This document shows, one piece after another, positions 3,628 through 63,460 of a DNA stretch of 64,000 nt. The translations under genes and the position numbers were made by a program. Below the pieces are notes generated by a model. The model did no database searches. It was not told the DNA's origin and saw only the letters and a list, made by a program, of their open reading frames with translations. Every line of letters begins with the position of its first letter. The first letter of the stretch is position 1. This DNA comes from Candidatus Latescibacterota bacterium (lineage in GTDB: Bacteria > Latescibacterota > UBA2968 > UBA8231), in the NCBI GenBank assembly GCA_965261395.1, contig OZ253462.1, positions 128,001-192,000 on the forward strand, in the 5' to 3' direction.

Positions 3628-3628
3628 C

Positions 3629-44742: not shown

Positions 44743-44884
44743 CTCCCCACATAGAGTCAACCATCAACATCAGGGCATCCAGATATTCCACTTGCCATAC
44801 TTTTCCCAGATGCGACAGGCGTCACAGGTACACATCAACCGGAGTGCAAAACGCGGTTTGTTACCAAAACTTTCGAACTCTCAG

Positions 44885-46219
44885 CTATAGCCCCTGCATC
44901 GCTGATTCGGGATCGAGAATTACATCAGCAGCAATCAATCGATCCTGTAGCTCGGCCATCGGCACGCCACGACTATCCACACCTGTTGCCCTTGCTATCG
45001 CAGCGGCCGTGCCAGCAGCCTGCCCCATGCCCATCGAGTTGGCTGTGACTCGACTTGATGCCAGGGCCTCTGAAGTTGCCGAGTGACAACGACCCGCAAC
45101 CCAGAGATTCTCTACGCCCTGCGGCAGCAACGTTCTGTACGAAATATCGTACGGCGGTACGATCGGCTGATCGTGATACCCGGCTGCGTCCTCAGGATGC
45201 CGGTCTATCCTCCACGCCCCAAGCACTACTACGTCATCCTGTCGTTTCGCAGTTCTTATATCGTCGCCGGTCAGCATGTAATCGCCGACGATTCTTCTGG
45301 ATTCTCGCGATCCAGCAGTCGGACCACTGGTGAAAAAGTATGCGTCTTTGAACTCGGGTAGTGCTTCTTTCCAGAGCTCGAACATGGTCCACGCATCACG
45401 TCGGCCCTGGATTTCTGCGTTCGTCCAGTCTTGCGGATTAGTTGCGTTTCTGGGAGTGCGAATCACATTGAAATAGATGTCTCGACCTGAGAAAGTTGCC
45501 GGCCACGGACCACCATAAAGGCCGATCTTTCCTTCGGCACGTGCCTTCTCCAGAACGGCCGCACATTTACGACGCAGCTCAAATGTAAGTTCAACAAAGC
45601 CAATTCGGAAGTGCAAGCTCATCGGCTGAAGCGACTCGGCGACCTCGTATGGACATCCTGCCCAGGCGGCGACATCGGCATCACCCGTGGCATCGATAAC
45701 GTACTGGGGTCGTATAGCGACGAGGCCGTCTTTGTTGCTGACTACGACACTGTCCACCCGGTCACCCTTCACGATCACGTCAGACACCTGTGTGTGGAAA
45801 AGCGGATTTACGCCAGACTCGACTAAAACGTCATCCGCAGCCTTCTTGAACAACTCCGGATCAGTGCGCGGAATTACGCGATCAGGATGCTTTTCGACCT
45901 CGGTGAAATCACCGTTCACGTTGTATGAGAGATGTCGAGCCTGCCCGGGCTCAACCACCCCCATTCGTTCGAGCATCTCAAAGACAAGTCCACCCACAAC
46001 AGGCTTACCAGTCTCTTCGTAGACGAATCCATCGAACGCCGAGCCGATGATGTTCGTAAAGAACCCACCGGCAAATCCCATGCGGTCAACTGCCATCACA
46101 GAAGCACCGTTCCGTGCCGCGCCAACAGCCGCACCAATACCCGCCAGCCCCGTTCCGCAAACGAGAACATCTGGTTCAGCGACTACAGGAAGTGATTTTG
46201 TGTACTGGATTATGGACAT
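44885..46219 (-). CDS. FAD-dependent oxidoreductase (FAD_oxidored family)
   Basis: GTGLAGIGAA, IDATGDAD, RESRRIVGDY, NLWVAGRC, GQAAGTAA. Confidence 0.88.
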   Translation of the reverse strand: MSIIQYTKSLPVVAEPDVLVCGTGLAGIGAAVGAARNGASVMAVDRMGFAGGFFTNIIGSAFDGFVYEETGKPVVGGLVFEMLERMGVVEPGQARHLSYNVNGDFTEVEKHPDRVIPRTDPELFKKAADDVLVESGVNPLFHTQVSDVIVKGDRVDSVVVSNKDGLVAIRPQYVIDATGDADVAAWAGCPYEVAESLQPMSLHFRIGFVELTFELRRKCAAVLEKARAEGKIGLYGGPWPATFSGRDIYFNVIRTPRNATNPQDWTNAEIQGRRDAWTMFELWKEALPEFKDAYFFTSGPTAGSRESRRIVGDYMLTGDDIRTAKRQDDVVVLGAWRIDRHPEDAAGYHDQPIVPPYDISYRTLLPQGVENLWVAGRCHSATSEALASSRVTANSMGMGQAAGTAAAIARATGVDSRGVPMAELQDRLIAADVILDPESAMQGL

Positions 46220-46261
46220 GATTTGCTACTCGACCAGCCCCCAATCCCCAGCCCCCGCTTC

Positions 46262-46999
46262 TCAATGCTTACACGCCACATGTCGATCTTCATATATTCC
46301 CTTTAGAAACTTTTCTGGATTGAGTTCTTCGGGCAAATAATGCCATGCCGTACTATAGCGCGTGCGATTGCTGTGGTTATCATAAGCACCGTGCAAGAGA
46401 TTGGCGGAAAACAGAACAACCGTGCCAGCGGGAATGACCAGATCCACAGCCTGCGATTCATCGACCTCTGTCCAACTGCCATGCCTGCTTGGATCTCTGC
46501 GGTGCTCGACAATCTCGCCCATCCGGTGGCTGCCGGGCACCACCCGCAAACACCCATTCTCCACATCTGAATCTTCCAGATAAATTCCGCAACTGATAAT
46601 GCGATCCGTATCAGTCCCAAAATAAAAACTGTCCTGATGCCAGCCCGTTGACGTGCCGCCGTTGGGCAACTTCGGAAAGAACTTGGTGCCAAACACATCA
46701 AAATTTTCACCAATCAATACTGCTACACGGTCTAAAATCGCCGTTTCACGCGCCAGTTCCAACACGCGGGAATCGACCACGCAAACACCCTGAATTTTGT
46801 GCAACAAACCCGCCCGGGGTTCACCGCACTCGTCCAACTCGAGCGTCCAGTGCGGCACCTGCTCGGTCAGCTTGCGCCCCTCTGCGACTAGTTCATCAAA
46901 CACCTGCTTGTAATAGGCCAATCGCTCGCCTTGAATCAGGGTTTCAAAAACAAGATAGCCATCTTCTCGAAACTGCCGCGCCTGTTCGTCTGTCAACAT
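46262..46999 (-). CDS. PhyH-family Fe(II)/2-oxoglutarate dioxygenase
   Basis: WHQD, NGCLRVVPGSH, LLHGAYDN...R. Confidence 0.92.
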   Translation of the reverse strand: MLTDEQARQFREDGYLVFETLIQGERLAYYKQVFDELVAEGRKLTEQVPHWTLELDECGEPRAGLLHKIQGVCVVDSRVLELARETAILDRVAVLIGENFDVFGTKFFPKLPNGGTSTGWHQDSFYFGTDTDRIISCGIYLEDSDVENGCLRVVPGSHRMGEIVEHRRDPSRHGSWTEVDESQAVDLVIPAGTVVLFSANLLHGAYDNHSNRTRYSTAWHYLPEELNPEKFLKGIYEDRHVACKH

Positions 47000-47016
47000 T
47001 CTTGTTCCTCCTCAAG

Positions 47017-47033
47017 GTATAGGAAAAATAAGG
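47017..47033 (-). repeat. oriIS-like 17-mer (isolated copy)
   Basis: GTATAGGAAAAATAAGG is identical to 53249-53265 and one mismatch from 60937-60953. Confidence 0.6.
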
Positions 47034-47071
47034 GAATTATATATTTGACTTCACAAATCCGTTCAAAACAC

Positions 47072-47115
47072 AAAATCGGCGGTCAGATAGGGTTTCTATG
47101 CTGACCGCCGATTTT
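47072..47115. terminator. Bidirectional-type hairpin terminator
   Basis: AAAATCGGCGGTCAG / CTGACCGCCGATTTT perfect inverted repeat. Confidence 0.75.
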
Positions 47116-47139
47116 TCATTTTAGAAAAGGAGTTATGGG

Positions 47140-47427
47140 TTATGGAGACTCAGAAGGATTGTTTGGATTCGTTAAGGAATCATTTATTTCTTGTTGAATG
47201 TGCTTTACGCCATCTTGGAAACCTTGCTTTACGTGAGGCGGAATATCAGACCTTTGGACGCGATTTTCGTAAAACTCAAGATAAGTGCCAATAACTTGGG
47301 CAATTTGATCTCCATTAGGTATATGATTTTTGATATATCCTAATGTTCCTATTATTGCTTGAGTTGTTGCCATTCTTTGCCCTGAAAGATACTCAGATAT
47401 TTCTTCAGGGCTTTGAGGATTAGACAT
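47140..47427 (-). CDS. Hypothetical protein (AT-rich)
   Basis: 95-aa ORF with GGAG RBS and downstream terminator. Confidence 0.65.
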   Translation of the reverse strand: MSNPQSPEEISEYLSGQRMATTQAIIGTLGYIKNHIPNGDQIAQVIGTYLEFYENRVQRSDIPPHVKQGFQDGVKHIQQEINDSLTNPNNPSESP

Positions 47428-47798
47428 AGCTAAGTCTCCATTGGTTTGGGATGGTTCAGGCCAGAATTGCCGTCAACGTAACGGAATCCAGTAGCCCGGA
47501 TTTGGACGAAATTGCTCAAAATCGAGCGGAATCAGAGAAAGTAAGGAGAGAATTCCTTAAAATCAATACTTGCTCTGGTTGAAAAATCATTTTATTCTAT
47601 GGCCGTTCATACTCTTGTAGAGACCCCGTTTAGTCGGGTCTTCTACCCAATACAACAGCCAGAAAGACCCGGCAACAGGGTAGCTCCCTATTGCCCCGGC
47701 GAATAAGTGGAACTTCTCTGATTCTCTACGAGAGTGTGAACAGGCCCGGCCCCTTTAACGGGGGCCATCCCTGTTCACCTCAACAAAGGAGAATCGCC

Positions 47799-48401
47799 AT
47801 GAAGTTTGCGGTGTTTTTCGTCATTATCGCCCTATTTGCTTGTTCATCGGATAGTCCGGTAGGGCCTAATACGGAGTCTGAACCTGTATTAGAGTCTTCG
47901 GGCAAGGCGGTTGATATAGAAGCAATAGGCGGTCTGTTAAAAGGTCGCTGGTTTAATGTTCACGAACTTAGAGATTCGGATATAATATCATCTATTTGGA
48001 TTTTGGAAGTTCGTGAAATGCCCGGAGAGTCAAGCATTTTTGAATATGACTTAGCCCGGATATATGATGCGAGACAGGAATACTCTCTGAAAGATTACGG
48101 GGAGGAAATAGGTGGTGGAGCTTTCAACGATTTATTGACTTGGGAGTTTGTTGAACGGGGAAGAATCCGGCCATATTCTACGAATGACTCAGGTCATATT
48201 CTATTTGATAGGATATTCAATGATCTCTCTAAAGTCGTTGAAATCGAGATATTTTCTAGTAATCGAGTCATTGTATGGGATTCGATACTTAAAATATCTC
48301 GATGGGATTCATTTGAATATTCTTTAGGCAATCAGATTTTTTTGAATTGTGAAGAATATTCTGATAATGATATATGCCTTTTTGACTACGGTTTCAAATA
48401 A
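47799..48401 (+). CDS. Hypothetical lipoprotein (AT-rich)
   Basis: AAGGAG RBS; MKFAVFFVIIALFA-C lipobox. Confidence 0.7.
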   Translation: MKFAVFFVIIALFACSSDSPVGPNTESEPVLESSGKAVDIEAIGGLLKGRWFNVHELRDSDIISSIWILEVREMPGESSIFEYDLARIYDARQEYSLKDYGEEIGGGAFNDLLTWEFVERGRIRPYSTNDSGHILFDRIFNDLSKVVEIEIFSSNRVIVWDSILKISRWDSFEYSLGNQIFLNCEEYSDNDICLFDYGFK

Positions 48402-48489
48402 AGGAGTTTATGATGGTAAAGCGTGAAGCGATTCCTCAAGAAGTCCATGAGCAGGCCAACTGTCCACGTTCAAGAGAGGGAGGTAAATC

Positions 48490-49095
48490 TTGTCTTATTT
48501 AGTAGGAACTCTCATTGCTGTAATTACAGTATTTGCTTTTTCGCAGCCTTCAGTTGCCCGTGAAAACGAGTTGGAAAGCTGGTACATGTACTGGGGGTTT
48601 GGAGCTTCTGATAATGACCTTTTTGACGATGTAGACCTAGAGGGTACAGGGGTAAGCCATACCTCCCTGTCTGTGGATTCCTTTGGGTTTTATTGGCCGA
48701 GAGGTCAAAAAACACTGGTCGGCGGGGTCATTAATACTTTTGCCGATTTTTTTGAGGGAAGTGATCTTCTTTCTAGTGCCGAGATTAATTCCTATAACTC
48801 GCTTTACTCAATTTCTGCGATGCACTTTCTGTCTCCAAAGATAGGACAGGGATTTTTTGTGCGAGCGGATGCCGGATTAGCCCTTCACTATGCTGAAGTA
48901 AAACTCGATATATTAGGTAATGAAGCAGATTCCGAGTGGACAAGTGAATGGGGATCGGGGTTTCTGATAGGAGGAGGGTACGGACTTCCGATAACAAGCG
49001 GAACGCGATTGCTCCTTAATGCTAATGTCTCTCAGCGGTATGTTGAGGAGGAATCTATGACCAATGTTGGGATCACACTTAACGGGCTGTTTTAG
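48490..49095 (+). CDS. Probable small outer-membrane beta-barrel protein
   Basis: GGGAGG RBS, signal peptide, alternating aromatic/Gly strands, C-terminal Phe. Confidence 0.7.
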   Translation: MSYLVGTLIAVITVFAFSQPSVARENELESWYMYWGFGASDNDLFDDVDLEGTGVSHTSLSVDSFGFYWPRGQKTLVGGVINTFADFFEGSDLLSSAEINSYNSLYSISAMHFLSPKIGQGFFVRADAGLALHYAEVKLDILGNEADSEWTSEWGSGFLIGGGYGLPITSGTRLLLNANVSQRYVEEESMTNVGITLNGLF

Positions 49096-49233
49096 CTGGA
49101 GTTAAGAGCTAAAGAAGTCGATTTCCACTAAAATGGTGCCTGTGAGGGTTTCGACCAAGTGATAAGAGGTAGGCCGGGGAGACTGTCTGACGAATCGCCT
49201 CTTGCAGCCCCCGTGATCGACATTACACAACCC

Positions 49234-49640
49234 TTAGTTACGCACCCGTCCGGTCGCGTGCGTCGCGAGGCAGTTCGCCTCCTGCAAGGAGCCTAGCCGC
49301 CACACCGGATGCACTCGCACCAAGCCGAACTCCCGGTTGCCCCAGTGTCGGGGGGCGTCCTCGGTAGCAGCGCTACTGCGGAGGATGGACGCCCGAACCT
49401 GCTCCATTTCCCGAGCCAGATTCCCCTTGTATGGGAACGAGAGAGGGCACGTCGCAAGCGCTGGCCGGCGCATGCCCCGGTGGCGATGGTCCCTCGCACC
49501 GAGGCCGCCGTCAGGGCGGCCAGCACGGGCTCCTCATCGGCGAACTGATCGGCGTCGAGTAGGCCGTGTTGGGTACACAGGCGGATGATGAGGCGCGCAC
49601 TCGTCTGCACGATCTGCTGCACCTCTGGGTCGGACAACGG
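49234..49640 (-). pseudogene. IS91/ISCR-like (Y2) transposase internal fragment, interrupted by a repeat
   Basis: ...EEPVLAALTAASVRGTIATGACAGQRLRR resembles the segment before FSLHA in ISCR-type transposases; the frame then runs into the repeat at 49357-49445. Confidence 0.6.
49357..49445. repeat. Dispersed repeat, right module only
   Basis: GTCCTCGGTAGCAGCGCTACTGCGGAGG...GCCAGATTCCCCTTG...ACGAGAGA matches 61115-61202 and 55763-55835. Confidence 0.9.
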
Positions 49641-49645
49641 CGGGG

Positions 49646-49852
49646 CTGACAGCCGGAGAAATTGAGATCCTCACGCTGTTTGCCACTGGCAAATCGTACG
49701 CTCAGATAGCAGAGGTGAAGGGCAACAGCCCGATTACTGTTCGGAATGCCATCTACCGCATTTAAGATAGACTTGGAGTAAAGACCAAACAGGAAGTCGT
49801 AGGGTGGGCAGTGCGAAATGGCTTGCTGGGTGACATGCAGCTAGACGACTAG
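49646..49852 (+). pseudogene. LuxR/NarL-type HTH fragment with internal stop
   Basis: LTAGEIEILTLFATGKSYAQIAEVKGNSPITVRNAIYRI*DRLGVKTKQEVVGWAVRNGLL; TAA at 49763-49765; no start codon. Confidence 0.8.
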
Positions 49853-50143
49853 CGCCCGCTGGCAGCGGTCAGGTCAGACTTCGTAGGATGTACGACAGTT
49901 GAGGTTGTCGGTTCGGTTTCAGTTCCATTGAGACCTTCCAGCTGAACATTCGCAATACACAATAGACACGAAAAACTCAGGTAATCGTGGCTGGTGGGGC
50001 TAAAGCCAGCACGTAGTCGGACGACACCATTCGTGTGGGGTGGTATCGTCCCCGAGGAGGACCCGTTGTCTCCCCCTTCGGCATCCGATAGCCACCGCGC
50101 GGCCCGGTGAAAATGTAGGTGGGATTGCCCCACGGCATACCAC

Positions 50144-51616
50144 TCAAGCACCCCCACCTTTCGGTTCCGCCGATTGCGTTGACTGACTTTGCCCGCCCTC
50201 TCCAGCTGACATCACTAAGCGGTCCCAGTCGGGAGCGCTTCCATCTCGCAACAAAGCCAACAGAGTGTCTCGGGCCAACTGCCGACCATCGGACAGCGCT
50301 TTCCCAAGGTCAATCCGTTTCCGCCTTGCCCGTGACCCGTGGACCAAAGCGGAACGCGCACCATAGAAATCCTTGACTTTGCGAAATATCCCTATGCGTT
50401 CTTCACCGTTGGTCCCGAGGAGATACCCGGCGCGGGTTTCCAACTTATAGGTGATCTCTGGTGCGTCCAAGCTGTACATGGTCTCAAGAGCTATGGCGGT
50501 ATCTAGGATGCGGTCTTCTGTACCGAATCGCCCAACTCTCGAAGGCAAACCCCCGAGCCGTCGGATGGCAAGGCCAAGCCGATCCCGGTCGTCCTGGTAC
50601 ATTCGCCAAGCCCGAACCATTTCAAGAAAGACTTCTGCACTGTCCTCAGAAAAGTGATTCTCACGCCACCAGTCGTTCGCCCACCCCCCACCACTGGTCC
50701 ACCCGAATTTAACGTTGGGGTCCAGGTCCTCCATCCATTTGTCCACCCGCACATACTGCCGCCGCGATATTTGTTGTTCTCCAGTTGCAATACAGAGGAA
50801 GTCCCGTACCGTTTCGTGGTCCCTGGGGAATTGGTACGTGGACGACGGGTCTTCCATGGTTTCTTCCTCAAAGGAGAATCGGAACCGGGTATTTAAGATT
50901 TTCTCTGATTCCACCTCCGTCGAGGTAATTGCAGGCCCCCAGGTCAGTTCTCTGACGAGCGCCGCGATGCTCTCCGGAGCTTCATCCAAGGGATGACGCT
51001 GTTCGATGCCCGCTGGAAGGTGCCTAAGATTCAGGAACGGGAACTCGCCACAAATCGCTTTAGCCTCTTCGTAGGGAGCCAGGAACGCGCCATCCCCGAT
51101 GTCAAGGCGGCGATCCAACTTGAGTCCGTAGAATAGAGTAACCTCGTAAGCCTTGAGATCCCGGGCCTCACCCAGCGTCAGGAATCGGTGTAATGTCTCG
51201 GCGGCGTTGCTCCCGTCAGTTTTGATAGCCAGTTTGGTCAAGCTAAGCGCCAAGGTCTTTAGTTCGACACGAAACGCGCCGTATGGTCTTAGAAAATGAA
51301 CAGCTTGGCCTTGGCTGGAATGGTCCAACGCCTGGCGTATCACCGGATGTTCACATAGGGCTGCCTTCACATCGGCCGGGTCGTCATCAAACCATAGGTG
51401 GGATTCTTCGAATGCAACCTCCGCGCCGGGTTCATGTTGCGCCCTACTTGCCAGGGTGCGGTACTCCTCATATGACACCTGTCCGGTATATCTATGGACC
51501 CGTCCGAAATCATCGACTTCCTCATAGGGGACCATTGGTCTTACCCTTGGGGCCAGAGCCATCAGGCTGGCAGCCAACCCTTCAATCCAGCAACTAAGTT
51601 CGAAATCTTGCTTCAT
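50144..51616 (-). CDS. ApeA-like HEPN-domain protein
   Basis: C-terminal DTAIALETMY...ITYKL.TRA...FYGARSALVHG (E...RX4H); GAGGAAGG RBS. Confidence 0.75.
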   Translation of the reverse strand: MKQDFELSCWIEGLAASLMALAPRVRPMVPYEEVDDFGRVHRYTGQVSYEEYRTLASRAQHEPGAEVAFEESHLWFDDDPADVKAALCEHPVIRQALDHSSQGQAVHFLRPYGAFRVELKTLALSLTKLAIKTDGSNAAETLHRFLTLGEARDLKAYEVTLFYGLKLDRRLDIGDGAFLAPYEEAKAICGEFPFLNLRHLPAGIEQRHPLDEAPESIAALVRELTWGPAITSTEVESEKILNTRFRFSFEEETMEDPSSTYQFPRDHETVRDFLCIATGEQQISRRQYVRVDKWMEDLDPNVKFGWTSGGGWANDWWRENHFSEDSAEVFLEMVRAWRMYQDDRDRLGLAIRRLGGLPSRVGRFGTEDRILDTAIALETMYSLDAPEITYKLETRAGYLLGTNGEERIGIFRKVKDFYGARSALVHGSRARRKRIDLGKALSDGRQLARDTLLALLRDGSAPDWDRLVMSAGEGGQSQSTQSAEPKGGGA

Positions 51617-51880
51617 CCTTCCTCACCTCTTTTGGGAATTGGCTTCGTGCTCCGAACCCCCAAGCCGATCTGGAGGACGCATCATCACAGACCCCTTACA
51701 GGTTCTCCTTGTCAGGCGGTCCCTCTGAGTAGGACTGGAACAAAGCCGGCTACGTTCTCATCGAGTCGGGCGCTTTCCCGGTCGGCCCTTCGCCGACAGT
51801 CAGCAGGCCAGCCAAGCACGAGGCGTGGGAGGATGGCTCCACCAGCGCAGTGGAAAACATTCTCGCCCGCCGCAGTATCG

Positions 51881-53188
51881 TCACGGAACAGCCATGTAGA
51901 ACTCCATCAAGTGGGGGAGTAGACTCAGCGCATGGAGGTGCTCTCCTAGCTGAGAGACGAACACTGACTCAGTATCATCTGGGTCAATGTTGTCAGACGC
52001 TACGTGAAACACAATGTTCCGAAAGTATCTAAGCTTGGGCGGAACGGCTTGCGGTCCCGCAATTCCTTCAATCTCATCGTGTCGTAACTCAGGAAACTCT
52101 TCGACAGCCTGGTGGTATATCCTCAGAGGTTCGGCAAGCAATGCGGTACTCACGCGCACCGGAGCAATCAGGTTTTGAGCCTGCTGATCGGTGATTGAGC
52201 TAGTATCCATGACCAATAAATCAAAGGGGCTGTGGGCATCCAGTTCAGTCCGGCTTCTGATTGCTCGTAACTTGCTGATGTCGAGTAGATTCACAAACTC
52301 ATTTGACAGTACCAGAGACCGCATCAGAATTCTCACGCAGTCCGTCTTAGCCTCCTGAACAAAGGATGGATAGCGTGGCCCATGGCTGACATTGTGCTTT
52401 CTGAACAACCCGAGCATATACCATGTTCGCAGGTTAAACGGTGTCTGGGTTGATTCATCAGTTGGGGTGTTGTATAAGCCGGGCAATGGACGCGAGAAAA
52501 CTTCCCACCTCTTATGCAATTTTGAAAGTTTGTCCTTGTCAGCTGGTCCAGAAGATTTGTTGGCGCGAAGTAACTCTTCGCCGACCAACTCGGATAATGA
52601 CCATCGGAGCCATGCTGCATACGCATCAATTGCCGACTGAGCCTTAAACACAGTGGAGTAGTAGTGACCATCTATCCCTCCGCCAGTCTCCATGAAGTTG
52701 TCGAGTGCGTCATGGAGATGTATTCGTTTAGCAGGATGCAACACCTTATCCCTAAGAGTGGTCAGATGTTGAATAGTAGTCTCGTTGGACTGGAACAAGG
52801 CTTCGAGGGGATCGAAGAGGAGGGCTGGGTCTCTTCTTGACTCCCTTCTATAACTCTCCAATTCCGCAGAGAGTAGGCACAAGTACATTTCCCATGGAAC
52901 CCAAGTCACAAACTCCAATATCCTGCGACTATTTAAGTCTGGGTCGAGGTCTTGGTCTTGGAACATCAGGTTATATACGGCGTCAATGTCCCTGTCATCG
53001 ATCAGTTGGGACATGCCTAGATTCTTCATCACACGAGTTTGGTGGTTGATATTGCGGAATGCAATGACGCGAACACCTTCCAATATGACACTCCGGTGAT
53101 ACTGAAGGTTTCGGTAGTGCTTTATTGCCTCATTCGGCAAATGGCTTCGCATTTTCTTATAGGCACCCTTATGTTTATCGGTCATCAT
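51881..53188 (-). CDS. Hypothetical helical protein with two HEPN-like RX4H motifs
   Basis: LRDKVLHP and FRNIVFHV in apparently duplicated halves. Confidence 0.6.
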   Translation of the reverse strand: MMTDKHKGAYKKMRSHLPNEAIKHYRNLQYHRSVILEGVRVIAFRNINHQTRVMKNLGMSQLIDDRDIDAVYNLMFQDQDLDPDLNSRRILEFVTWVPWEMYLCLLSAELESYRRESRRDPALLFDPLEALFQSNETTIQHLTTLRDKVLHPAKRIHLHDALDNFMETGGGIDGHYYSTVFKAQSAIDAYAAWLRWSLSELVGEELLRANKSSGPADKDKLSKLHKRWEVFSRPLPGLYNTPTDESTQTPFNLRTWYMLGLFRKHNVSHGPRYPSFVQEAKTDCVRILMRSLVLSNEFVNLLDISKLRAIRSRTELDAHSPFDLLVMDTSSITDQQAQNLIAPVRVSTALLAEPLRIYHQAVEEFPELRHDEIEGIAGPQAVPPKLRYFRNIVFHVASDNIDPDDTESVFVSQLGEHLHALSLLPHLMEFYMAVP

Positions 53189-53248
53189 TCAAATCCCCAA
53201 TGTTCAATGGATTGCGACGCTCAGATATCGGAGGCGGCTGTATGTTAT

Positions 53249-53419
53249 GTATAGGAAAAATAAGGCCCGATGTCGGTACTATGCAGTTCGCTGAAAACGT
53301 ACGCAAGGGGCCAGCAGGGTCCCTGATGAATCGCTTGTCGTCGTCCAGCATCGTTCGGGACTGCTCTCAGTACCGTTGTAAAGGATTTCTGTGCGTTTCA
53401 GGGGTCAGCCCGGTACTTG
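53249..53419. repeat. Dispersed repeat, left module with oriIS-like end
   Basis: Aligns by eye with 60937-61108 (…CGGTACTATGCA.TTCGCTGAAAACGTACGCAAGGGG…TTTCAGGGGTCA). Confidence 0.9.
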
Positions 53420-53634
53420 AGGGTGCACTCCTCCGTACCGCTCACGGCGCCGGGAGCGAATCGGGAGGAGGTCAGGCAGCGAACTCAAACTGCGGCTGAG
53501 GCGGGCCCTCGGCGGGGGCACCGCCGGCAGCCTTACCCCGCATCAGCACATCACGCCGGTCCGTCTTCACCCGCTCCCCACTGCGACGCGAGATCCGACT
53601 CGGTGCCACCACCTCGCACCGGTGGCCCGCTTGG

Positions 53635-55589
53635 CTACTTCGGTCGCGCGAAGGCAACGAGCGCGGCGTCTGGCCCGGTGCCCGTCGCGATGACGATGAA
53701 CTGCCGCCCCGACCGCGCCCGGTAGGTCATCGGGTTCGCGTTCGTTGGAAACGGCGTCGCGCCACGCCAGACCTCGGTGCCCGTCGCCTTGTCGAACGCA
53801 TATAGGTACGGAGTGCCGCCGCCGAGGAACACGAGGCCCCCCTTGGTCACCATCGGGCCGGAGTTGCCGCGCGTGCCCAGCCGCTCCGGCAGCTCGACGC
53901 CGCGCAGCAGCGGGTGATTGCGGATCTCGGGGCTGCCCTCACCGAACGGTATCTTCCACGCAATCTCGCCAGCATCGAGGTCAATAGCCACTAGGTGCGC
54001 GTACGGCGGCTTGATGAGCGGAATCGGGCCGAGCTTGCTCTCCGGGGTTTGCGCGGTGCCCGGTCCGTCGGCCTCCCGAAACATGAGGAGCGACGCACCC
54101 CATAGGGACAGTTGTTGCTGTACTCGACGTCGACTTCCGGGTCGTTGCCCGCATTCTCGCACAACTGGTTCGTGTCGGCGTCTTCCGATGTCCGAACGTA
54201 CAGCAGCCCGGTCTCGGGATCAAAGGCCGCCCCGCCCCAGTTCGCGCCGCCGCTGGCGCCCGGGCGCTGGAGCGTCCCCTGAAGACTCGGCGGCGTGAAG
54301 AGCGGACCCAGCCGGAACCGCTGCATCTCCTCCACCGCGAGCGCGTGGATCTCCGGCGTCAGATCGTTCGCGTCCTCCAGCGACACCCCCTGCCTGCTGA
54401 AAGGCGGCGGCTTGGTCGGGAACGGCTGCGTCGGATACAGCACCTCGCCCGGCACGTCCGTCGTCGTGTCCACCGCACGCTCCTCGATTGGCCACACCGG
54501 CTCGCCCGTCACCCGGTCGAACACGTACGTGAAGCCGTGCTTGGAAACCTGCGCCACCGCGTCGATCTCGCGCCCGTCCACCGTTACCGTCACGAGGTTC
54601 GGCGCTGCGGACAGGTCGTAGTCCCACACGCCGTGATGCACCGCTTGGAAGTGCCACTGCCGCTCACCCGTGCGCACGTCGAGGCACACCAGCGACTCGG
54701 CGAAGAGGTTCGCCCCCACCCGGCGGCCACCCCAGTAGTCGCTGCTCGGCGTGCTCGTCGGCACGTACAGCAGCCCGCGCTCGGCGTCGAGCGATATCAG
54801 CCCCCACACGTTGGCGTGGCCGGTGTAGCGCCACGACTCGTCCTCATAGGTGTCCGCGCCGAAGTCGTCGCTCGATTGCGGGATGGTGAAGAAGACCCAG
54901 CGGCGCTCGCCCGTGCGGGCGTCGAACGCCTGCACGGTTCCGGGGGTGTCGAACTTTCGCTGCAGCCGGTCAGGCACGCGGCTTCCCACGATCACTAGGT
55001 CCTCGAACACCACCGGCGGCGAGGTCTGGTCGAACTCGTGGCGGGTCACCGGGCGGCCATGGCCCTCGGTCAGCACAACGCTCCCGCTCTCGCCGAAGTC
55101 CGTGTCTAGCTCGCCGGTCGCGGCATCGATTGCGTACAGCCGGTCGCGGCTGTTGAGGAAAACGCGGTCGTCGTCGCCGTCGCTCCAGTAGGCGATACCC
55201 CGGTGCTTGAAGCCCCTCGGCCCCACACCCTTGGGCCCACCTTCGTAGGCCTTGGGATCAAAGGTCCACAGTTCGGCACCCGTCTCCGCGTCGAGAGCCA
55301 CCACACGCGTGTACATGGTGGAGAGGTAGAGGACGTTGCCGATCATGATGGGCGTTGCCTGGAATGGGCCCGGCCGGATGCCGTACTCCGCGAGGGGCAT
55401 CTCGTTCGGCTCCCATTGCCAGACGATCTCCAGTTCGTCGACATTCGCGGCCGTGATCTCCTCAGCCGCCGAGTACTTAGTGGGCGCCTGCTCGGCACCG
55501 ACGTACGGCCATTCAATCATGACGCCCGATTCCTGGGCGCCTGCGAGGGTGGTAAACAAGAGGGCGGCTGTCGCAACGAATCGCTTCAT
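53635..55589 (-). pseudogene. PQQ-dependent (quinoprotein glucose dehydrogenase-like) enzyme, frameshifted
   Basis: FQATP, HRGIAYW, WHFQAVHHGVWDYD, PTQPFP, GGANWGG; the C-terminus (KPPYAHL..., ANPMTY...GRQF) is in a different frame, shift near 54098-54101. Could be a sequence error. Confidence 0.85.
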
Positions 55590-55630
55590 GGAGGGGAATC
55601 CGATTGGAGAATGGAAACTAGTTTCGCGGC

Positions 55631-55666
55631 GTATTCTACGTATTCTAGGTATTCTACGTATTCTAG
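55631..55666. repeat. 9-bp tandem repeat x4
   Basis: GTATTCTAC GTATTCTAG GTATTCTAC GTATTCTAG. Confidence 0.9.
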
Positions 55667-55683
55667 ATATCATGGGTCGGCAA

Positions 55684-55840
55684 TATGCAGTTCGCTGAAA
55701 ACGCACGCAAGGGTCCAGCAGGGTCTCTGATGAATCGCTTGTCGTCGCACAGAATCGTTCGGGCTACTGCGGAGGGTGGATGCCTGAACCTGCGCCATTT
55801 TCCTAGCCAGATTCCCCTTGCCTGGGGACGAGAGAATGCC
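55684..55840. repeat. Dispersed repeat, internally deleted copy
   Basis: Left module up to ATCGTTCGGG joined directly to CTACTGCGGAGGG of the right module. Confidence 0.9.
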
Positions 55841-56145
55841 CCTATCCGCGCTGAGCTACCAGCAGGACTATGAAGAGACCGGGAGATGGCGAAAACACTG
55901 GTGGCAAAAGATCGCAGCACGGGTGAAGAAAATGGATAGAAAGCCTGGGTTGGCTACGCAGTCGACGGCGACAGTCGAAATCGTCGGGACAGGGTACGAC
56001 TTCATGACGAACCACGCTCCCCGAAGATAAAAGGCGTGTAGTACGAACCCGAGGGAAGTTACAGTGTCGAGGTGTAGGGGCTCGTCGGGAAGGCCGAATG
56101 GACCCGTCCGGCGAGATTTGTATGCGATCATTTTGCATCGGCTAC

Positions 56146-56178
56146 TTGACAATCAGCCGTAAACACCGTAAGCTTACA
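56146..56178 (+). promoter_or_regulatory. Promoter for a probably leaderless HTH mRNA, overlapped by candidate operator 1
   Basis: TTGACA-17 nt-TAAGCT ends 6 nt before ATG 56181, no SD; GTAAACACCGTAAGCTTACA at 56159-56178. Confidence 0.7.
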
Positions 56179-56180
56179 AC

Positions 56181-56525
56181 ATGTCCAAGACGTTGGGTGA
56201 GCGTATTCGCGAGCTGCGTGATCAGGCAGATCTCTCCCTACGCGACCTGTCAAAGAGGACCGGTGGCCTGACGGCTGCTTTCCTTTCGGATATTGAGCTG
56301 GGGCGACGTTTTCCCTCAGATGATGCCCTTGTCCGTTTGGCCAAGGCGTTGGGGACGACAGTCGAGGATCTTCGAACCTACGACACGCGTCCGCCAGTAC
56401 AAGAGATCAAGCGGTTATCCGCGCAGAATCCCGCAATCGGTGCGGCTTTTCGTAAGATCACCGAGATGACGCCGGAAGAGATACTGAAGATGGTTGAGAA
56501 ATCGACAAGAAAGAAAAAAAAGTGA
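56181..56525 (+). CDS. XRE-family HTH repressor, CapH-like
   Basis: LGERIRELR...LSLRDL...FLSDIELGRRFPS; coupled to a metallopeptidase gene. Confidence 0.88.
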   Translation: MSKTLGERIRELRDQADLSLRDLSKRTGGLTAAFLSDIELGRRFPSDDALVRLAKALGTTVEDLRTYDTRPPVQEIKRLSAQNPAIGAAFRKITEMTPEEILKMVEKSTRKKKK

Positions 56526-57217
56526 GGAGTCTACGCGCGGATTCGGGTCCCTTCACGGAGAAGCCATTCTTCACCGAGAGCGAGATCGAACGAATGTGCG
56601 AGTGTGCCCTCCGCGAAGCAGGATATTACCCTTCCGAACCGTCGCGGGTGAACATCGACCGGTTTATCGAGAAGCACTTTGATGTTTCGCCACAGTTCGA
56701 GGATCTTCCGGAAGGAGTTCTCGGTTACTCTTGCTTCGGCGGCGATGGAATGATCAGCATGCACATTACGACGGCACTTACAAACGCGGGAACGCGAGTA
56801 GCCGAACGTCGCGTGAACACGACCCTAGCGCACGAGGCAGGTCACGGGCTGTTTCACTCATATCTCTTCAGCCTTGCTGAAGCCGGGTTAGAGCTTTTTG
56901 AGTCTGATCCCGATGTGACAAAGACTAGGATCCTCTGCCGCGATGAGAATACGCAACGGCAGAAGGTCAACGGGCGATGGTGGGAGACTCAGGCAAATAT
57001 GGCGATCGGTCCCCTGCTGATGCCAAGATCACTTGTCGTGGAAGTGGTTAAGCCATTTCTTGTCTCTACAGGCCTCTTGGGAATCGGGGATGTGCCTGAA
57101 GATAAGCGCGAGAATGTGGTCGCGACGCTCTCCGACGTTTTCGACGTTAACCCTGTCGTGGCGCGTATTCGATTGGAGGGAATTTTCAAGCCCTCGGGGG
57201 GGCAGCTGTCGCTCTGA
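56522..57217 (+). CDS. ImmA/IrrE-family Zn metallopeptidase, CapP-like
   Basis: TLAHEAGH, internal ILCR Cys, WETQAN...LLMP, FDVN...ARIRL. Confidence 0.88.
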   Translation: MRSLRADSGPFTEKPFFTESEIERMCECALREAGYYPSEPSRVNIDRFIEKHFDVSPQFEDLPEGVLGYSCFGGDGMISMHITTALTNAGTRVAERRVNTTLAHEAGHGLFHSYLFSLAEAGLELFESDPDVTKTRILCRDENTQRQKVNGRWWETQANMAIGPLLMPRSLVVEVVKPFLVSTGLLGIGDVPEDKRENVVATLSDVFDVNPVVARIRLEGIFKPSGGQLSL

Positions 57218-57234
57218 TTTTTTTTGGATAAGAT

Positions 57235-57254
57235 GTAATCATTGTCAGCTTACA
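57235..57254 (+). promoter_or_regulatory. Candidate operator 2 upstream of the ubiquitination genes
   Basis: GTAATCATTGTCAGCTTACA, 16/20 identical to 56159-56178; both are GTAA-N11-TTAC. Confidence 0.6.
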
Positions 57255-57321
57255 TAAGCTTCTATTGAACCTGAATTCCGGTCTCTATGGACGAGCCGGG
57301 ATTGCGAGTAAAGGAGAAACA

Positions 57322-57390
57322 ATGGAAAAAATTTTGACTTACCTTCGATATGGGAACCAACCGATGTCCATCAGAAAGGAAACCAACTGA
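57322..57390 (+). CDS. 22-aa upstream mini-ORF coupled to the Ubl gene
   Basis: AAGGAG RBS; MEKILTYLRYGNQPMSIRKETN; TGATG overlap with the Ubl start. Confidence 0.4.
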   Translation: MEKILTYLRYGNQPMSIRKETN

Positions 57391-57656
57391 TGTCCACCCC
57401 AAAGAAGATTTCAATCACCGTAGTCGTCAACGGCCAGCCAACTGTGGTCGATGCCAGCCAAGATGAACCCCTCGGTACGATTATTCCTGATGCGTTGCGT
57501 CAGACAGAGAACTCGGGCCAGCCACCAGAGAATTGGGAGCTCCGCGGTGCCGATGGGACGCTTCTTGACCTAGACAAGAAGATCGAGGACTACGGCTTCC
57601 CATCCAAGGTCCGCCTGTTCCTGAATCTCAAGGCGGGGGTTGGAGGCCATGGTTAA
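57390..57656 (+). CDS. bilA: Ubiquitin-like protein (DUF2604-like), Bil system
   Basis: Beta-grasp-like sequence, GQPPENWELR, LFLNLKAGVGG-HG C-terminus. Confidence 0.85.
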   Translation: MSTPKKISITVVVNGQPTVVDASQDEPLGTIIPDALRQTENSGQPPENWELRGADGTLLDLDKKIEDYGFPSKVRLFLNLKAGVGGHG

Positions 57657-58254
57657 CGCGACCGAACAGCATGTAGACCCCGAGGTATCCCGTACCAAGT
57701 TCGATCGCGAGATTACCGAGTACCTTTCCCTTGAGGCTGACTACCGCGCCCGGGGCTGGTTTCTTGTGAAGGCGGACTGGCCTGTGGCAGTCGTTGTTCT
57801 GGCCTCGAATAAGACCAGCCCGCCGGCGATTGTGACCGCCGTCCAGTTCGACTATACGAACTATGACGCCGAGCCGCCCTCAGTTCGCATGACTGATCCG
57901 TTCTCCGGCCGATTTCTTCTAAGCAAGGAGCTCCCCACCCGCCTCCTTCGCGCGATCCCCGGACCGGAGATGCCCCTACCGAACGGCACCAAGGTGCAGC
58001 AGGTATCGGTGCAGGAGCTGATGCAGGCTCACTCTCCGGAAGACCAACCCTTCCTCTGCGTAGCCGGGGTCAAGGAATATCACGACCACCCTGGCCATTC
58101 CGGTGACCAGTGGGAAATACACCGGTCCGCTGGCGAAGGTCGGATGGTTCGCCTGTTGGAGGTGATTTCCAAGTACGGCCTCGAACCGGTGCAGGGGTTC
58201 AACGTCAACCTCGTACCGCAAGTTACCTTCACTGTCTCGGAGCCTCCCCAGTGA
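57649..58254 (+). CDS. bilB: E2-like conjugating enzyme, Bil system
   Basis: DYTNYDAEPPSV, FLCVAGVKEYHDHPGH; position between Ubl and JAB genes. Confidence 0.8.
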   Translation: MVNATEQHVDPEVSRTKFDREITEYLSLEADYRARGWFLVKADWPVAVVVLASNKTSPPAIVTAVQFDYTNYDAEPPSVRMTDPFSGRFLLSKELPTRLLRAIPGPEMPLPNGTKVQQVSVQELMQAHSPEDQPFLCVAGVKEYHDHPGHSGDQWEIHRSAGEGRMVRLLEVISKYGLEPVQGFNVNLVPQVTFTVSEPPQ

Positions 58255-58742
58255 CCCTACGAGGCGTGCGGCGTTTTCGAATCCAGGCGAGTGCCATACG
58301 CGAAACCATGGAGGCGATTCGGTCTGCAGGACAGGATGGCTACGAGTTGTTCGTAGTATGGTCGGGTACGCGTGATGACGACATCTTCACCGTCGCCAAG
58401 GTGCATATCCCTAAACAAACCTCCTACAAACTCGATGCCGGACTCTGCGTACGAGTTGACGGTCCTGAGCTCCATCGCTTGAACATGTGGCTCTACGAGG
58501 CACAGCAGGCCATAGGAGTGCAGGTCCACGGTCATCCAGCCGATGCCTATCACTCGGAAACCGACGACACCTACCCGATCGCCACAATGCACGGAAGCCT
58601 ATCCATCGTCCTTCCCTTCTTCGGCCACGACGGCTGGGAGTCAAGTGATATCGCGGCCTATCGTCTCGGGCAAGACGGATGGGTCGAACTAACCGGCCCC
58701 TTGAGTGACCTGATAGAGGTTGTTGACAATGGCGTTAGCTGA
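58251..58742 (+). CDS. bilC: JAB/MPN metallopeptidase, Bil system
   Basis: N-terminal GYE, QVHGHPADAYHSETDD (HxH-X7-S-X2-D-like); GTG start overlaps the E2 stop. Confidence 0.88.
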   Translation: MTLRGVRRFRIQASAIRETMEAIRSAGQDGYELFVVWSGTRDDDIFTVAKVHIPKQTSYKLDAGLCVRVDGPELHRLNMWLYEAQQAIGVQVHGHPADAYHSETDDTYPIATMHGSLSIVLPFFGHDGWESSDIAAYRLGQDGWVELTGPLSDLIEVVDNGVS

Positions 58743-60234
58743 CTATTTCCCTCGCGACGCGGTCGCCATCTCGCAAGTGCTCCAGGGGTTTCAACGCGAC
58801 GCCTTCATCGAAAAGCTCGAGGGTGTCCGAGTGGCAATCGCCTTCGGCGAGGAGGCGGCTACCAGCCGCGACGGGCGCGAACTCCTTGATCTCTCTGTCA
58901 GGCTAGCGGCTCGCTTGTACCCGAGCCTGACGTTTGCCACCGTTCCTGCCGGAGATCGGTTCGCCGATGAACTGATGGCGTTGGCCAGTAGCATCAACCC
59001 TAACATCGAAGCGTCTAAGACGGGTACTGCTAATGTTGGTCTCTCGATCGGCGGGGATGCACCGGCCCTAAACGCACCAACCGTATATGCTGGCTGCGAT
59101 GGCTGGCTGGCCAAGGTGGGAACTGAGGGCCCATACATGACCAGCGACCTAGGGAACCCCTTTGGAGCCGGCTTCGCCGCCTGCTTGGCGGCAGCCAACT
59201 TGTTTCGCTTCCTCTTCCTCCCCAACGGCACAACTTTGCTGGATACCGACATTAGTTTCCCTCCCGACGACGCCTCTTTCCCCAGTCTTGCGGCGTCCAC
59301 ACTGGCGGATCCCCTGGTGTTGGTCGGCGTTGGGGCGGTCGGCAACAGTGCCTCCTGGGCCCTATCGCGTACGCCGCTCACCGGCCAGATTTACCTAGTC
59401 GATCCACAAGTCGTCGAACTTAGCAATCTCCAGCGCTACGTTCTTGGTGCACGGAGCGACGAAGGCGGCATCAAAGTTGATGTCGCTGCGAAGGAGTTTC
59501 GCGCCGCGCTACAGGCGCTTTCTCATCATGGAACATGGGCTTCCTTCCTCTGCGCCAATGGCTACAAGTGGGAACGCGTTCTAGTTGCCCTCGACTCCGC
59601 CCATGACAGGCGAGCCGTACAAGGGAGCCTGCCACGTTGGATCGCTAACGCATGGACCCAAATAGGCGATCTCGGCGTGTCCTCTCACTCTTTCTTGGGT
59701 CAAGACGCCTGTCTTGCCTGCCTTTACTTGCCAACCGAGAAATCCAAGAGCGAAGACCAGATCGTCGCTGAAGGCCTTAAGATCCCTCAATTCCAGGATC
59801 CGGTTCGCTTTCTGCTCGGAAGCGGGCAGGCGACCGGCAAGGAGCTCTGTGACGCGGTTGCTGCCGCTTGGGGCATCCCGGCCGAGACACTGGAGCCTTA
59901 TATAGGTAGGTCGATACGTGAACTTTGGGTGGAGGGCATCTGTGGCGGCGGTATCATTCCTCTCGGAGAAGCCGGACCTACTCCGGGAGACCGGCAAGTT
60001 CCGCTTGCTTTCCAATCGGCTCTTGCCGGTATGCTGCTGGCCGCGGAAACGGTACGCGACGTGTTGACCGACGGTGCTCAACGCAAGACCCTCATGCGCC
60101 GGCTTGATGTCTTGCGCCCCTTAGGCGATCCTTCACCCCAACCGGCGCTCAAGGCCGGAACGGGTAGCTGTATCTGTGAGGATCGCGATTTTATTACTAC
60201 CTATCGAACAAAGTATGGAGCAGAAACTGGCTGA
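58729..60234 (+). CDS. bilD: E1-like ThiF enzyme with N-terminal inactive-like domain, Bil system
   Basis: GVGAVG, DPQVVELSNLQRY, ALDS, CLAC, candidate catalytic ICGG, C-terminal CIC. Confidence 0.88.
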   Translation: MALADYFPRDAVAISQVLQGFQRDAFIEKLEGVRVAIAFGEEAATSRDGRELLDLSVRLAARLYPSLTFATVPAGDRFADELMALASSINPNIEASKTGTANVGLSIGGDAPALNAPTVYAGCDGWLAKVGTEGPYMTSDLGNPFGAGFAACLAAANLFRFLFLPNGTTLLDTDISFPPDDASFPSLAASTLADPLVLVGVGAVGNSASWALSRTPLTGQIYLVDPQVVELSNLQRYVLGARSDEGGIKVDVAAKEFRAALQALSHHGTWASFLCANGYKWERVLVALDSAHDRRAVQGSLPRWIANAWTQIGDLGVSSHSFLGQDACLACLYLPTEKSKSEDQIVAEGLKIPQFQDPVRFLLGSGQATGKELCDAVAAAWGIPAETLEPYIGRSIRELWVEGICGGGIIPLGEAGPTPGDRQVPLAFQSALAGMLLAAETVRDVLTDGAQRKTLMRRLDVLRPLGDPSPQPALKAGTGSCICEDRDFITTYRTKYGAETG

Positions 60235-60289
60235 CTTTGATGGCTGATTGGAGCGGGTTAGCTGATCGACCCGCTCTAGGCATCGAGTC

Positions 60290-60622
60290 CTACGCCTCAA
60301 CAAGCCAATCCTCACACGGTTTATACCCTTCATTCACCGCATCCTGATAGTAAGATGTGAGGCCAGAGACGGCCCTATTAAGGGCATGCGCAGGATCATC
60401 GGCGCACGGAAGGCTGGTCCGGTAGGCATCCACCTGCCTAGGCGTATGAATCACATGGCTGACCTCAAAGGTTGTCTTTTCGCTGCTCATAAATCTACAA
60501 AGTCTTATGGTGATGTGAGTCTTAAGATCTCCAAGCCGGATGACGAACCTTCCTAGGTCATCATCTCGTTCAAGTACGGTGATGAGATCCTGGTCCAAGA
60601 CGTTATCAAAGGTGTAAGGCAT
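60290..60622 (-). CDS. Hypothetical protein (110 aa)
   Basis: GAGGAGGAG RBS; convergent with the Bil operon. Confidence 0.75.
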   Translation of the reverse strand: MPYTFDNVLDQDLITVLERDDDLGRFVIRLGDLKTHITIRLCRFMSSEKTTFEVSHVIHTPRQVDAYRTSLPCADDPAHALNRAVSGLTSYYQDAVNEGYKPCEDWLVEA

Positions 60623-60936
60623 CGAACTCCTCCTCTGTGAGTTGGTTTAACTTCTCTATGTGCCGGGCCAAGGGAGGAACGTCCGTGCTGACTTCGACCC
60701 CTCCCTTTGGATGGCCCGGCAACTCTTCTCAATCCTGCTTCGTTGGTGGCTAGGGGCCTACTACCGGCTTGAGTAAGGGCTTTGTTTTTGTGACGGTCAC
60801 CGTTAGATCCTCAAAGGCGACTTCTTGGTTGCCACCAACAAAGACACCTACACTCCCTCCATAAGCAGTAAAACCCCGCCAATACCGACTATTCCAAACA
60901 TAGCGTCTGCACTGGCATCTTTTCCTAAATAGAAAT

Positions 60937-61210
60937 GTATAGAAAAAATAAGGCACCGATATCGGTACTATGCAATTCGCTGAAAACGTACGCAAGGGGT
61001 CAGCAGGGTCCCTGATGAGTCGCTTGGTCGTCGCACCGAATCGTTCGGGAATGCTCAGAGCACCGTTGTAAAGGATTTCGGCGCGTTTCAGGGGTCAACC
61101 TAGTACTTCCCCCCGTCCTCCGTAGCAGCGCTACTGCGGAGGGTGGACGCCCGAACCTGCGCCATTACCCGAGCCAGATTCCCCTTGCTTGGAAACGAGA
61201 GAACGCCCTT
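60937..61210. repeat. Dispersed repeat, fullest copy (~270 bp); candidate non-autonomous IS91-like element
   Basis: Contains the oriIS-like end, the left module and the palindromic right module seen separately elsewhere. Confidence 0.85.
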
Positions 61211-61222
61211 TATTATTTCTAA

Positions 61223-63415
<2,193 letters not shown>

Positions 63416-63460
63416 TCTCAGCGGGGTGCTCGGTAACGGTGGTCTCCGGTGCATCTGAGG

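Follow-up and report, generated by a model that had tools for sequence, protein, structure and literature searches.

The 435-aa protein encoded on the minus strand at positions 51881 to 53188 of a 64,000-nt stretch of Candidatus Latescibacterota DNA (assembly GCA_965261395.1, contig OZ253462.1, positions 128,001 to 192,000 of the forward strand; from here: the window) very probably has a tandem-HEPN architecture, with one Rx4H motif in each of two homologous halves. Taken together, the observations are best explained by a single-chain tandem-HEPN ribonuclease (RNase) acting in defence or conflict, a reading that we consider reasonably probable. Of its parts, the putative RNase activity is likely, while the putative role in defence or conflict has about even chances. 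Cas13, Csm6/Csx1, many abortive infection (Abi) systems and many toxin-antitoxin (TA) pairs have HEPN RNases as their effector modules, and almost all of these RNases need two subunits per active site. Their Rx4-6H motif usually has a polar residue (N, D or H) after the arginine.

Two homologous halves with one Rx4H motif each

The gene and the segments of its protein are laid out as follows.

51881..53188, minus strand: gene of the probable tandem-HEPN protein (P0001), read as an open reading frame (ORF) with its ATG at 53188 and its stop codon at 51881-51883; 48 homologues and 154 representative clusters
52544..53149, minus strand: N-terminal HEPN-like half, residues ~14-215, with helix 1 at 19-56, helix 2 at 88-119 (including E109), helix 3 at 136-150 and helix 4 at 158-211
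52736..52753, minus strand: motif 1, R146-D-K-V-L-H151 (Rx4H), at the C-terminal end of helix 136-150; from direct sequence reading, conservation and the predicted interface
52406..52543, minus strand: linker or insert, residues ~216-261, from the alignment, with a lower predicted local distance difference test (pLDDT) of 59-81
51884..52405, minus strand: C-terminal probable HEPN half, residues 262-435, with helix 1 at 275-299 (N296, E297), helix 2 at 334-364 (E353), helix 3 at 384-394 and helix 4 at 403-432
52004..52021, minus strand: motif 2, R390-N-I-V-F-H395 (Rx4H), at the C-terminal end of helix 384-394; from direct sequence reading, conservation and the predicted interface

The two halves are homologous, because three profile-profile alignments agree. 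With 101-104 sequences per half, hhalign aligned the N-terminal half (residues 14-245) with the C-terminal half (residues 265-435) over 85 columns at a probability of 95.2% (E 2.5e-8), and a shorter N-terminal segment (residues 85-215) with the C-terminal half over 74 columns at 96.1% (E 3.4e-9). Independent half-alignments built from genomic loci only (10 and 9 sequences) gave a probability of 80% (E 1.4e-5, 65 columns). The Rx4H motifs were in register in all three alignments, and the 'LL.aE...Y' helices preceding them were likewise in register in the two larger comparisons. An earlier note on this DNA had proposed duplicated halves that each carry RX4H, a claim borne out by these alignments. 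Both strings on which it had relied were recovered from the protein, LLSAELESYR...DPAL...LRDKVLHP at residues 105-152 and LLAEPLRIYH...FPEL...FRNIVFHV at residues 350-396.

RxxxxH occurs three times in the protein against 1.45 expected from its composition, and at least three instances arose in 1716 of 10,000 shuffles, so that the motif by itself lies within chance; three motifs of the form R[NDH]xxxH were obtained in 16 of 10,000 shuffles. The third RxxxxH (R26-H31) is not retained as a motif among relatives. It is the near-invariance of the other two across relatives, and not the motif count, that exceeds chance. An alignment of 41 homologues shows no variation at R146, H151, P152, R390, N391, F394 and H395, nor at E109 and E353-P-L-R356. 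Among 109 near-full-length relatives the HEPN-type Rx4-6H motif was found twice, with R146 in 108 and H151 in 107 sequences for motif 1, and with R390 in 104 (4 gaps) and H395 in 103 for motif 2. Both R/H pairs are thus kept in homologs, a check that the earlier note had named, each of the four residues in at least 103 of 109. The residue after the arginine is D, H or N in 106 of these relatives at motif 1 and N, K, H or D in 101 at motif 2; for the helix-2 acidic residues, E109 is present in 98 and E353 in 84, with D in a further 8.

Outside the motifs, conservation is densest in the long N-terminal helix (residues 19-56, window ~53021-53134), where it comprises H31, R32, E37, G38, A43, R45 and H49 (...HRS.ILEG...A.RN.NH). 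The invariant residues 31 and 37-38 lie within the predicted inter-half interface described below, and this cluster may extend the active site or serve as a gate. The linker between the halves contains a conserved PLP...QTP stretch in the alignment, and a subfamily of ~490 aa carries an additional insertion of ~60 aa there.

The AlphaFold2 model, computed from a 41-sequence alignment, is all-alpha with a mean pLDDT of 85.5 and a predicted template modelling score of 0.89. In this model R146-L150 and R390-F394 close the helices 136-150 and 384-394, respectively, and each histidine opens the next loop. Short inserts were modelled at 126-134 and 371-377, and both final helices are kinked (158-173/176-211 and 403-413/420-432). 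The accessible part of the HEPN survey by Anantharaman et al. (2013, PMC3710099) places the Rx4-6H motif where helix 3 ends and the conserved acidic residue, if present, in helix 2, and describes helix 4 as frequently kinked. The predicted model fits that description in all three respects. For each half the top structural matches were HEPN domains, less clearly so for the N-terminal half. Judged by the predicted model, the C-terminal half is structurally similar to solved HEPN domains, with the highest TM-scores for 3jrt (0.50/0.52; none of the matches of this half at E <= 0.001), a structure assigned to the 'Integron cassette HEPN' family in the accessible part of the survey (PMC3710099). The top matches of both halves and the motif position at the end of helix 3 speak for a HEPN fold, the lack of which would have undone the earlier proposal.

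When supplied as separate chains (residues 14-250 and 262-435), the halves docked with an interface score (ipSAE) of 0.73 versus 0.00 for the best control. Of 157 solved complexes 116 attained this mark, as did 2 of 215 mismatched pairs; these counts are approximate here because own alignments were used, and the score may partly reflect memory, HEPN dimers being solved structures. Contact agreement in the docking runs was at least 87% and the pLDDT of the partners at least 69. The confidently predicted interface comprises, in full-length numbering, residues 146, 148-153, 392-398, 108-109, 353-354, 297, 31 and 37-38. Since it holds 146, 148-153 and 392-398, both motif segments would be turned towards the inter-half interface, as is the case in HEPN dimers, instead of lying far apart, a finding that would have contradicted the earlier note; the helix-2 acids E109 and E353 share the predicted interface with both segments. 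The model is therefore suggestive of a composite active site that the two Rx4H motifs would share.

Several results weigh against this reading of the fold. Foldseek searches of the PDB with the whole model and with the C-terminal half yielded no match at E <= 0.001, and neither did a search of viral models (BFVD). Modelled alone, the C-terminal half attained a pLDDT of only 70.5, and R390 itself is outside the list of confidently predicted interface residues. PDB sequence searches remained at chance level (single protein E 0.46, profile E 1.2). By hhalign, the motifs were aligned with those of a HepT profile (21 sequences; E 0.31 and 0.034, probability 0.2-1.5%) and of a Cthe_2314-like profile (2 sequences; E 0.005-0.017, probability 3-7%), in both cases without significance. 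Moreover, no relative scores at or above a curated family cut-off in Pfam, NCBIfam, PADLOC or PHROG.

A HEPN fold need not imply a nuclease. The protein could instead bind nucleotides or other ligands or act as a regulator, comparable to the nucleotidyltransferase substrate-binding HEPN proteins, or it could be a helical scaffold using its R, H and E residues in other chemistry. We consider this unlikely: non-catalytic HEPN domains typically lose Rx4-6H according to a table in the accessible part of the survey (PMC3710099), whereas both motifs, the polar residue after the arginine and the helix-2 acid are kept among the 109 members, and the patchy, island-borne and often disrupted distribution described below is more in keeping with a conflict gene than with a housekeeping binder. 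We also rejected a reading of the E...H pairs as diiron or ferritin-like, since the histidines are not part of an ExxH and none of the structure searches returned such a fold. For the tandem-HEPN nuclease put forward in the earlier note, the architecture thus stands on conservation, duplication and HEPN-like matches, and its RNase activity is putative.

Family membership and genomic neighbourhoods

Among 5.8 billion clustered proteins, 48 relatives were found, all of them unnamed and lacking a precomputed Pfam domain. An exhaustive phmmer search of 1.84 billion representatives gave 154 at E <= 0.001, corresponding to ~154 clusters at 50% identity; of these, 106 pass E <= 1e-10 and 28 pass E <= 1e-30. 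The best 150 representatives include no fused forms and are all at most 564 aa long. The 435-aa protein itself has no match in Pfam (none at E <= 0.01), NCBIfam, PADLOC or PHROG. Sub-threshold Pfam matches were obtained in 6 of 79 relatives (also in 2 of 41), all of them over the motif regions and all to HEPN-named families or to DUF4145, which we take to be HEPN-affiliated. They comprise HEPN_Cthe2314 (best 5e-5), HEPN_Swt1 (1.2e-3), HEPN_Apea, DUF4145 and HepT-like families, and the closest to a curated cut-off was the relative P0064 with 23.8 bits for HEPN_Cthe2314 against 27.1 needed. No Abi Pfam family, including Abi_2, matched the protein or its relatives, and PF18730, searched against all six frames of the genome, found no match. 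The ESM Atlas returned unnamed clusters only (0.84-0.87, under the useful level), and there were no relatives among JGI metagenome contigs or IMG/VR viral contigs. Because no curated model is reached, we regard these proteins as a new family within the HEPN superfamily and not as part of a named one.

The 16 related loci were taken from one-genome-per-species contigs, from metagenome-assembled genomes (MAGs) labelled Acidobacteriota, Terriglobia, Marinacidobacterales, Vicinamibacterales, Chloroflexota, Latescibacterota, Rhodobacterales, Alpha- and Gammaproteobacteria, Acidimicrobiales and Binatia. The family occurs in at least six phyla, mostly in marine MAGs. Within the same genus the gene was present in none of 30 other genomes, and only a fragment was found in 1 of 60 relatives; its distribution is patchy across phyla. 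In the window, its GC content of ~0.47-0.50 is below the 0.65-0.70 of the pyrroloquinoline quinone (PQQ)-dependent dehydrogenase gene immediately upstream, which places it in compositionally foreign DNA. A sequence scan detected neither a sigma-70 promoter-like site on the gene strand nor a terminator-like site.

Neighbouring genes were surveyed as 138 ORFs of at least 100 aa within ~5 kb of the 16 related genes (Pfam at E <= 1e-5). No neighbour family was common to more than 3-5 loci and none was consistently adjacent, in agreement with the stand-alone status assigned in the earlier note. Restriction or defence families were present in 9 of the 16 loci and transposases or integrases likewise in 9 of 16, but both counts come without a background control, and the near-duplicates L013 and L014 are both among the loci with defence families, which tells against reading them as support for a defence role. 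The defence genes are distributed over the loci as follows.

L001 and L003: GmrSD
L002: Mrr
L006: Eco57I-type, XamI and AAA_15/21
L010: AAA_21
L013 and L014: AAA_21 and RloB, with KAP in addition in L014
L015 and L016: DruA

Beyond these, L011 gave a borderline NACHT match and L004 a Phd antitoxin only. In the window, a BilABCD-type operon with CapH/CapP is located at 56.2-60.2 kb, 3-7 kb from the tandem-HEPN gene. With this operon nearby and restriction or defence genes in 9 of 16 related loci, the defence island postulated in the earlier note is plausible; that the protein itself functions in defence is the putative part of that claim.

Six of the 16 related copies are disrupted, being split in L003, L006 and L015, truncated in L005 and L012 and interrupted by an insertion sequence (IS) in L011, and the L004 copy lacks motif 2. 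Such disruption fits a costly or toxic gene, but it fits neutral decay or MAG assembly errors equally well and in this respect also counts against the favoured interpretation. The interruption in L011 (8691-10046) is a DDE transposase insertion. In L009 the family gene is flanked by two 100% identical DDE_Tnp_1_4 genes (3394-4821 and 9742-11169) in direct orientation, an arrangement resembling a composite transposon. L003 (1885-2021 and 9649-9805) and L016 (5848-5923 and 15375-15518) have group II intron RNA domains a short distance from the family gene, which is more evidence for mobile-element-rich surroundings.

Three further neighbours were noted in the window. A 527-aa protein without family match (41137-42720, plus strand) is encoded 9 kb from the tandem-HEPN gene; distant relatives of it (21-25% identity, E 9e-15 and 6e-8) occur 0.35-2.4 kb from the tandem-HEPN gene in L001 (11666-14002, minus strand) and L007 (9864-11531, minus strand), so that it may be another island or defence gene sharing the same neighbourhoods. 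Directly downstream and on the same strand, a 490-aa ORF (50144-51616, minus strand) has no match in Pfam, NCBIfam or PADLOC, a weak one in PHROG (E 0.0017) and no homologue in the 16 related loci; it was dismissed as a paralogue of the tandem-HEPN protein, the sequences being unrelated. The PQQ-dependent dehydrogenase is spread over two ORFs (53635-54162 and 53991-55706, minus strand) that overlap and are read in different frames. Its N-terminal part matches PF01011 (E 2e-159) and its C-terminal part the C-terminus of TIGR03074/TIGR03075, which suggests a frameshift and hence either a pseudogene or an assembly error.

Guide arrays, partner RNAs and the adjacent IS91-family end

No repeat-spacer array was found in the window segment 49000-56500, and a k-mer scan for CRISPR-like arrays was negative in all 17 loci (window 44000-64000 plus the 16 related loci), confirming the earlier statement that no CRISPR array is nearby. 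Rfam searches at E <= 1 found nothing in 49000-56500, including RF03085, and at the gathering score returned only tRNAs and group II introns, and no RF03085, in the 16 related loci. Compared with shuffled sequences, the 265-bp downstream gap had a fold z-score of -0.01 and the upstream repeat one of -0.86, and the gap is not conserved among related loci. The earlier note had speculated about a non-coding partner in the repeat at 53249 or in this gap, for which we found no support: the repeat is the end of an IS91-family element, and the gap is neither structured nor conserved.

These searches bear on the idea of an RNA-guided or RNA-activated nuclease that is related to the compact Cas13an ancestors (429-577 aa) and draws its guide from something other than a recognisable CRISPR array. 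The size class and the single-chain layout with two HEPN domains are alike. The absence of sequence similarity to Cas13an is not decisive, because neither Foldseek nor HMM searches connect Cas13an with other Cas13s either, as stated in the accessible part of the study by Yoon et al. (2024, PMC12165695). CRISPR-like arrays in 0 of 17 loci, the lack of any non-coding flank conserved across the family and of any Rfam match, including the AbiF-associated RF03085, and a protein that beyond its short linker has no space for a CRISPR RNA-binding lobe nevertheless make this relation very improbable. The signature strings of the family are, in addition, absent from the tables and data of that study (PMC12165695), whose cells were seen to 400 characters.

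A related alternative, to which we give a small chance, is the toxin of a TA pair whose small-protein or RNA antitoxin was missed and whose main effect would be to keep the mobile island stable, not to fend off phages. HEPN toxins such as HepT, which are the best-matching solved RNases, are normally neutralised by a partner; transposases surround the gene, some of the related loci contain TA genes (ParE, Phd), and 6 of 16 copies are disrupted. Yet no ORF is conserved beside the family in the 16 loci, and a nucleotidyltransferase of the MNT type was found neither among the 138 neighbouring ORFs nor beside the window gene. An RNA antitoxin is disfavoured by the Rfam results given above, at the gathering score for the 16 loci and at E <= 1 around the window gene, and by flanking non-coding regions that fold no better than shuffles. 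The conserved upstream DNA is, moreover, an IS91 end that is also present away from the gene.

This end constitutes the following feature.

53247..53530, minus strand: truncated right end of an IS91-family element, consisting of the last Y2 transposase codons and ~230 nt of 3' non-coding DNA, ending ...CCTTATTTTTCCTATACAT, ~60 nt upstream of the ATG

Over 267 nt (53247-53510) the DNA upstream of the gene is 85% identical to that upstream of L008, a Latescibacterota homologue whose protein shares only ~30-39% identity with the window protein. The repeat was recognised as a truncated IS91-family right end because longer copies encode the C-terminus of Y2_Tnp (PF04986; E 7e-18 and 1e-18). Those copies are in G041, the genome of L008, where at least 68 matches form same-orientation arrays with a spacing of 2-9 kb in regions of 70-130 kb; in L008 the copies are at 260, 2303, 4682, 7919 and 10552. 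Partial copies also exist in the window, at 55676-55770 and 60935-61108 (minus strand), and the end motif ...CCTTATTTTTCCTATAC, presumably similar to published oriIS ends, recurs at 47017 (47017-47034), with more copies elsewhere in the genome. The copies at 47017, 55676 and 60935 also precede unrelated genes. The truncated ends recur in the same orientation and each precedes a different gene block, a possible explanation of island assembly being that rolling-circle transposons may have built a cargo array. At the edge of the copy at 55676-55770, a 9-nt tandem unit (GTATTCTAC/G; 4-5 copies) is located at 55630-55677.

The junction raises the question whether the protein is an accessory of the IS91-type rolling-circle element that ends 60 nt upstream, e.g. 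a transposition helper. The same end directly precedes both the L008 homologue and the window gene although their proteins have diverged strongly, but this junction exists in only 2 of 17 loci, the remaining 15 lacking the end motif. The matches in G041 adjoin unrelated genes, as do the window copies. An intact IS91 transposase with the Y2 domain (PF04986) was not found in the genome of the window, which is weak evidence because control genomes were also silent. We consider an accessory role in transposition highly improbable.

Proposed mode of action and comparison with known systems

The tandem-HEPN RNase that we favour would work as follows. Two four-helix HEPN domains (residues ~14-215 and 262-435) would pack as an intramolecular pseudo-dimer, replacing the homodimer of single-domain HEPN RNases. 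Each half would contribute one Rx4H motif (R146/H151; R390/H395) where helix 3 ends and one helix-2 acid (E109; E353), and the motif segments at the inter-half interface would most likely build one composite, metal-independent RNA-cleaving site. The protein would act on its own, lacking a conserved partner gene, a guide array and a partner RNA, and would be carried as accessory cargo of variable regions rich in mobile elements and defence genes. There it would most likely serve as a toxic RNase, inactive until triggered, for phage defence of the abortive-infection type or for conflict between mobile elements. Here we infer the geometry of the composite site, the RNase activity, the toxicity, the trigger and the role in defence.

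A more far-reaching version, for which we see only a slim chance, would make the family a free-living relative of the Cas13 progenitor type. A compact pseudo-dimer would then be activated by a specific RNA, either a phage transcript or an unrecognised guide encoded elsewhere, and the H31, R32, E37, R45 and H49 cluster would act as its gate. If that were true, the family would represent a CRISPR-independent, RNA-sensing immune nuclease made of one protein and spread by rolling-circle (IS91-type) and other transposons.

Single-domain HEPN proteins differ from the family in how the second motif is supplied. To bring two motifs together, a protein like 3jrt would depend on a partner subunit. This structure, Vpc_cass2, is one domain of 166 residues with 8-10% identity in an integron attC context, whereas here there are two domains and an IS91 end. 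The HepT/DUF86 toxins of the type VII MNT-HEPN systems (5yep_B, 7ae2_A, 8xdj_A, 1ylm) consist of one ~130-aa domain that forms a homodimer, with an adjacent MNT to neutralise it; the tandem-HEPN protein, in contrast, has two fused domains, no MNT neighbour (none among the 138 ORFs of the 16 loci at E <= 1e-5, nor beside the window gene) and no H-x-Y extension. AbiV (9bj5), ApeA and AbiD/AbiF likewise carry one HEPN domain per chain and oligomerise, as opposed to two per chain here. According to the accessible part of Yoon et al. (PMC12165695), AbiD/F co-occurs with the non-coding RNA RF03085, which was not found at our loci.

The closest parallels are the intramolecular HEPN dimers. The parts of PMC12165695 available to us list twelve AlphaFold-DB clusters with such a dimer. 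Cas13an (429-577 aa) accounts for two of them and uncharacterised bacterial proteins that lack CRISPR (Bacillus mobilis, 509 aa, and Clostridium sp. DL-VIII, 467 aa; Table S2) for another two, while the remainder are mostly eukaryotic. As far as can be seen from these parts, Cas13an and the other members are, like the family described here, single chains of 430-580 aa whose two HEPN domains pair with each other, and our protein shows this Cas13-type layout of two HEPN domains in one chain in its duplication and, as an intramolecular dimer, in the predicted docking. Cas13an needs both of its Rx4H motifs (PMC12165695, Fig. 3 legend). A further common trait is that neither HMM nor Foldseek detects similarity. 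The family differs from it by the lack of a CRISPR array or guide RNA in the 17 loci; in addition, the HEPN helices of Cas13an are described as rearranged in the accessible text (PMC12165695), compared with a canonical-looking order in our predicted model, a comparison made by description only.

The earlier note had called the nuclease undescribed. This applies to the family, which has no Pfam, NCBIfam, PADLOC or PHROG match and for which we found no paper, but not to the kind, as single-chain HEPN dimers without CRISPR are among the twelve clusters of PMC12165695. Since those clusters exist and the family strings are absent from the accessible tables and data of that study, we regard the kind as known and the family, in its CRISPR-free and partner-free form, as new, with room left for a match to one of the twelve clusters. 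It is an unannotated addition to a well-studied superfamily and not a new principle. If active, the protein would be a small monomeric RNase scaffold whose regulation must necessarily reside in the same chain, and it is a candidate single-gene anti-phage system. The probable internal duplication of the HEPN domain would answer the two-subunit need of HEPN RNases within ~435 residues and without CRISPR, and would thereby provide an independent example of the fused-HEPN route that the accessible part of Yoon et al. (PMC12165695) proposes for the origin of Cas13.

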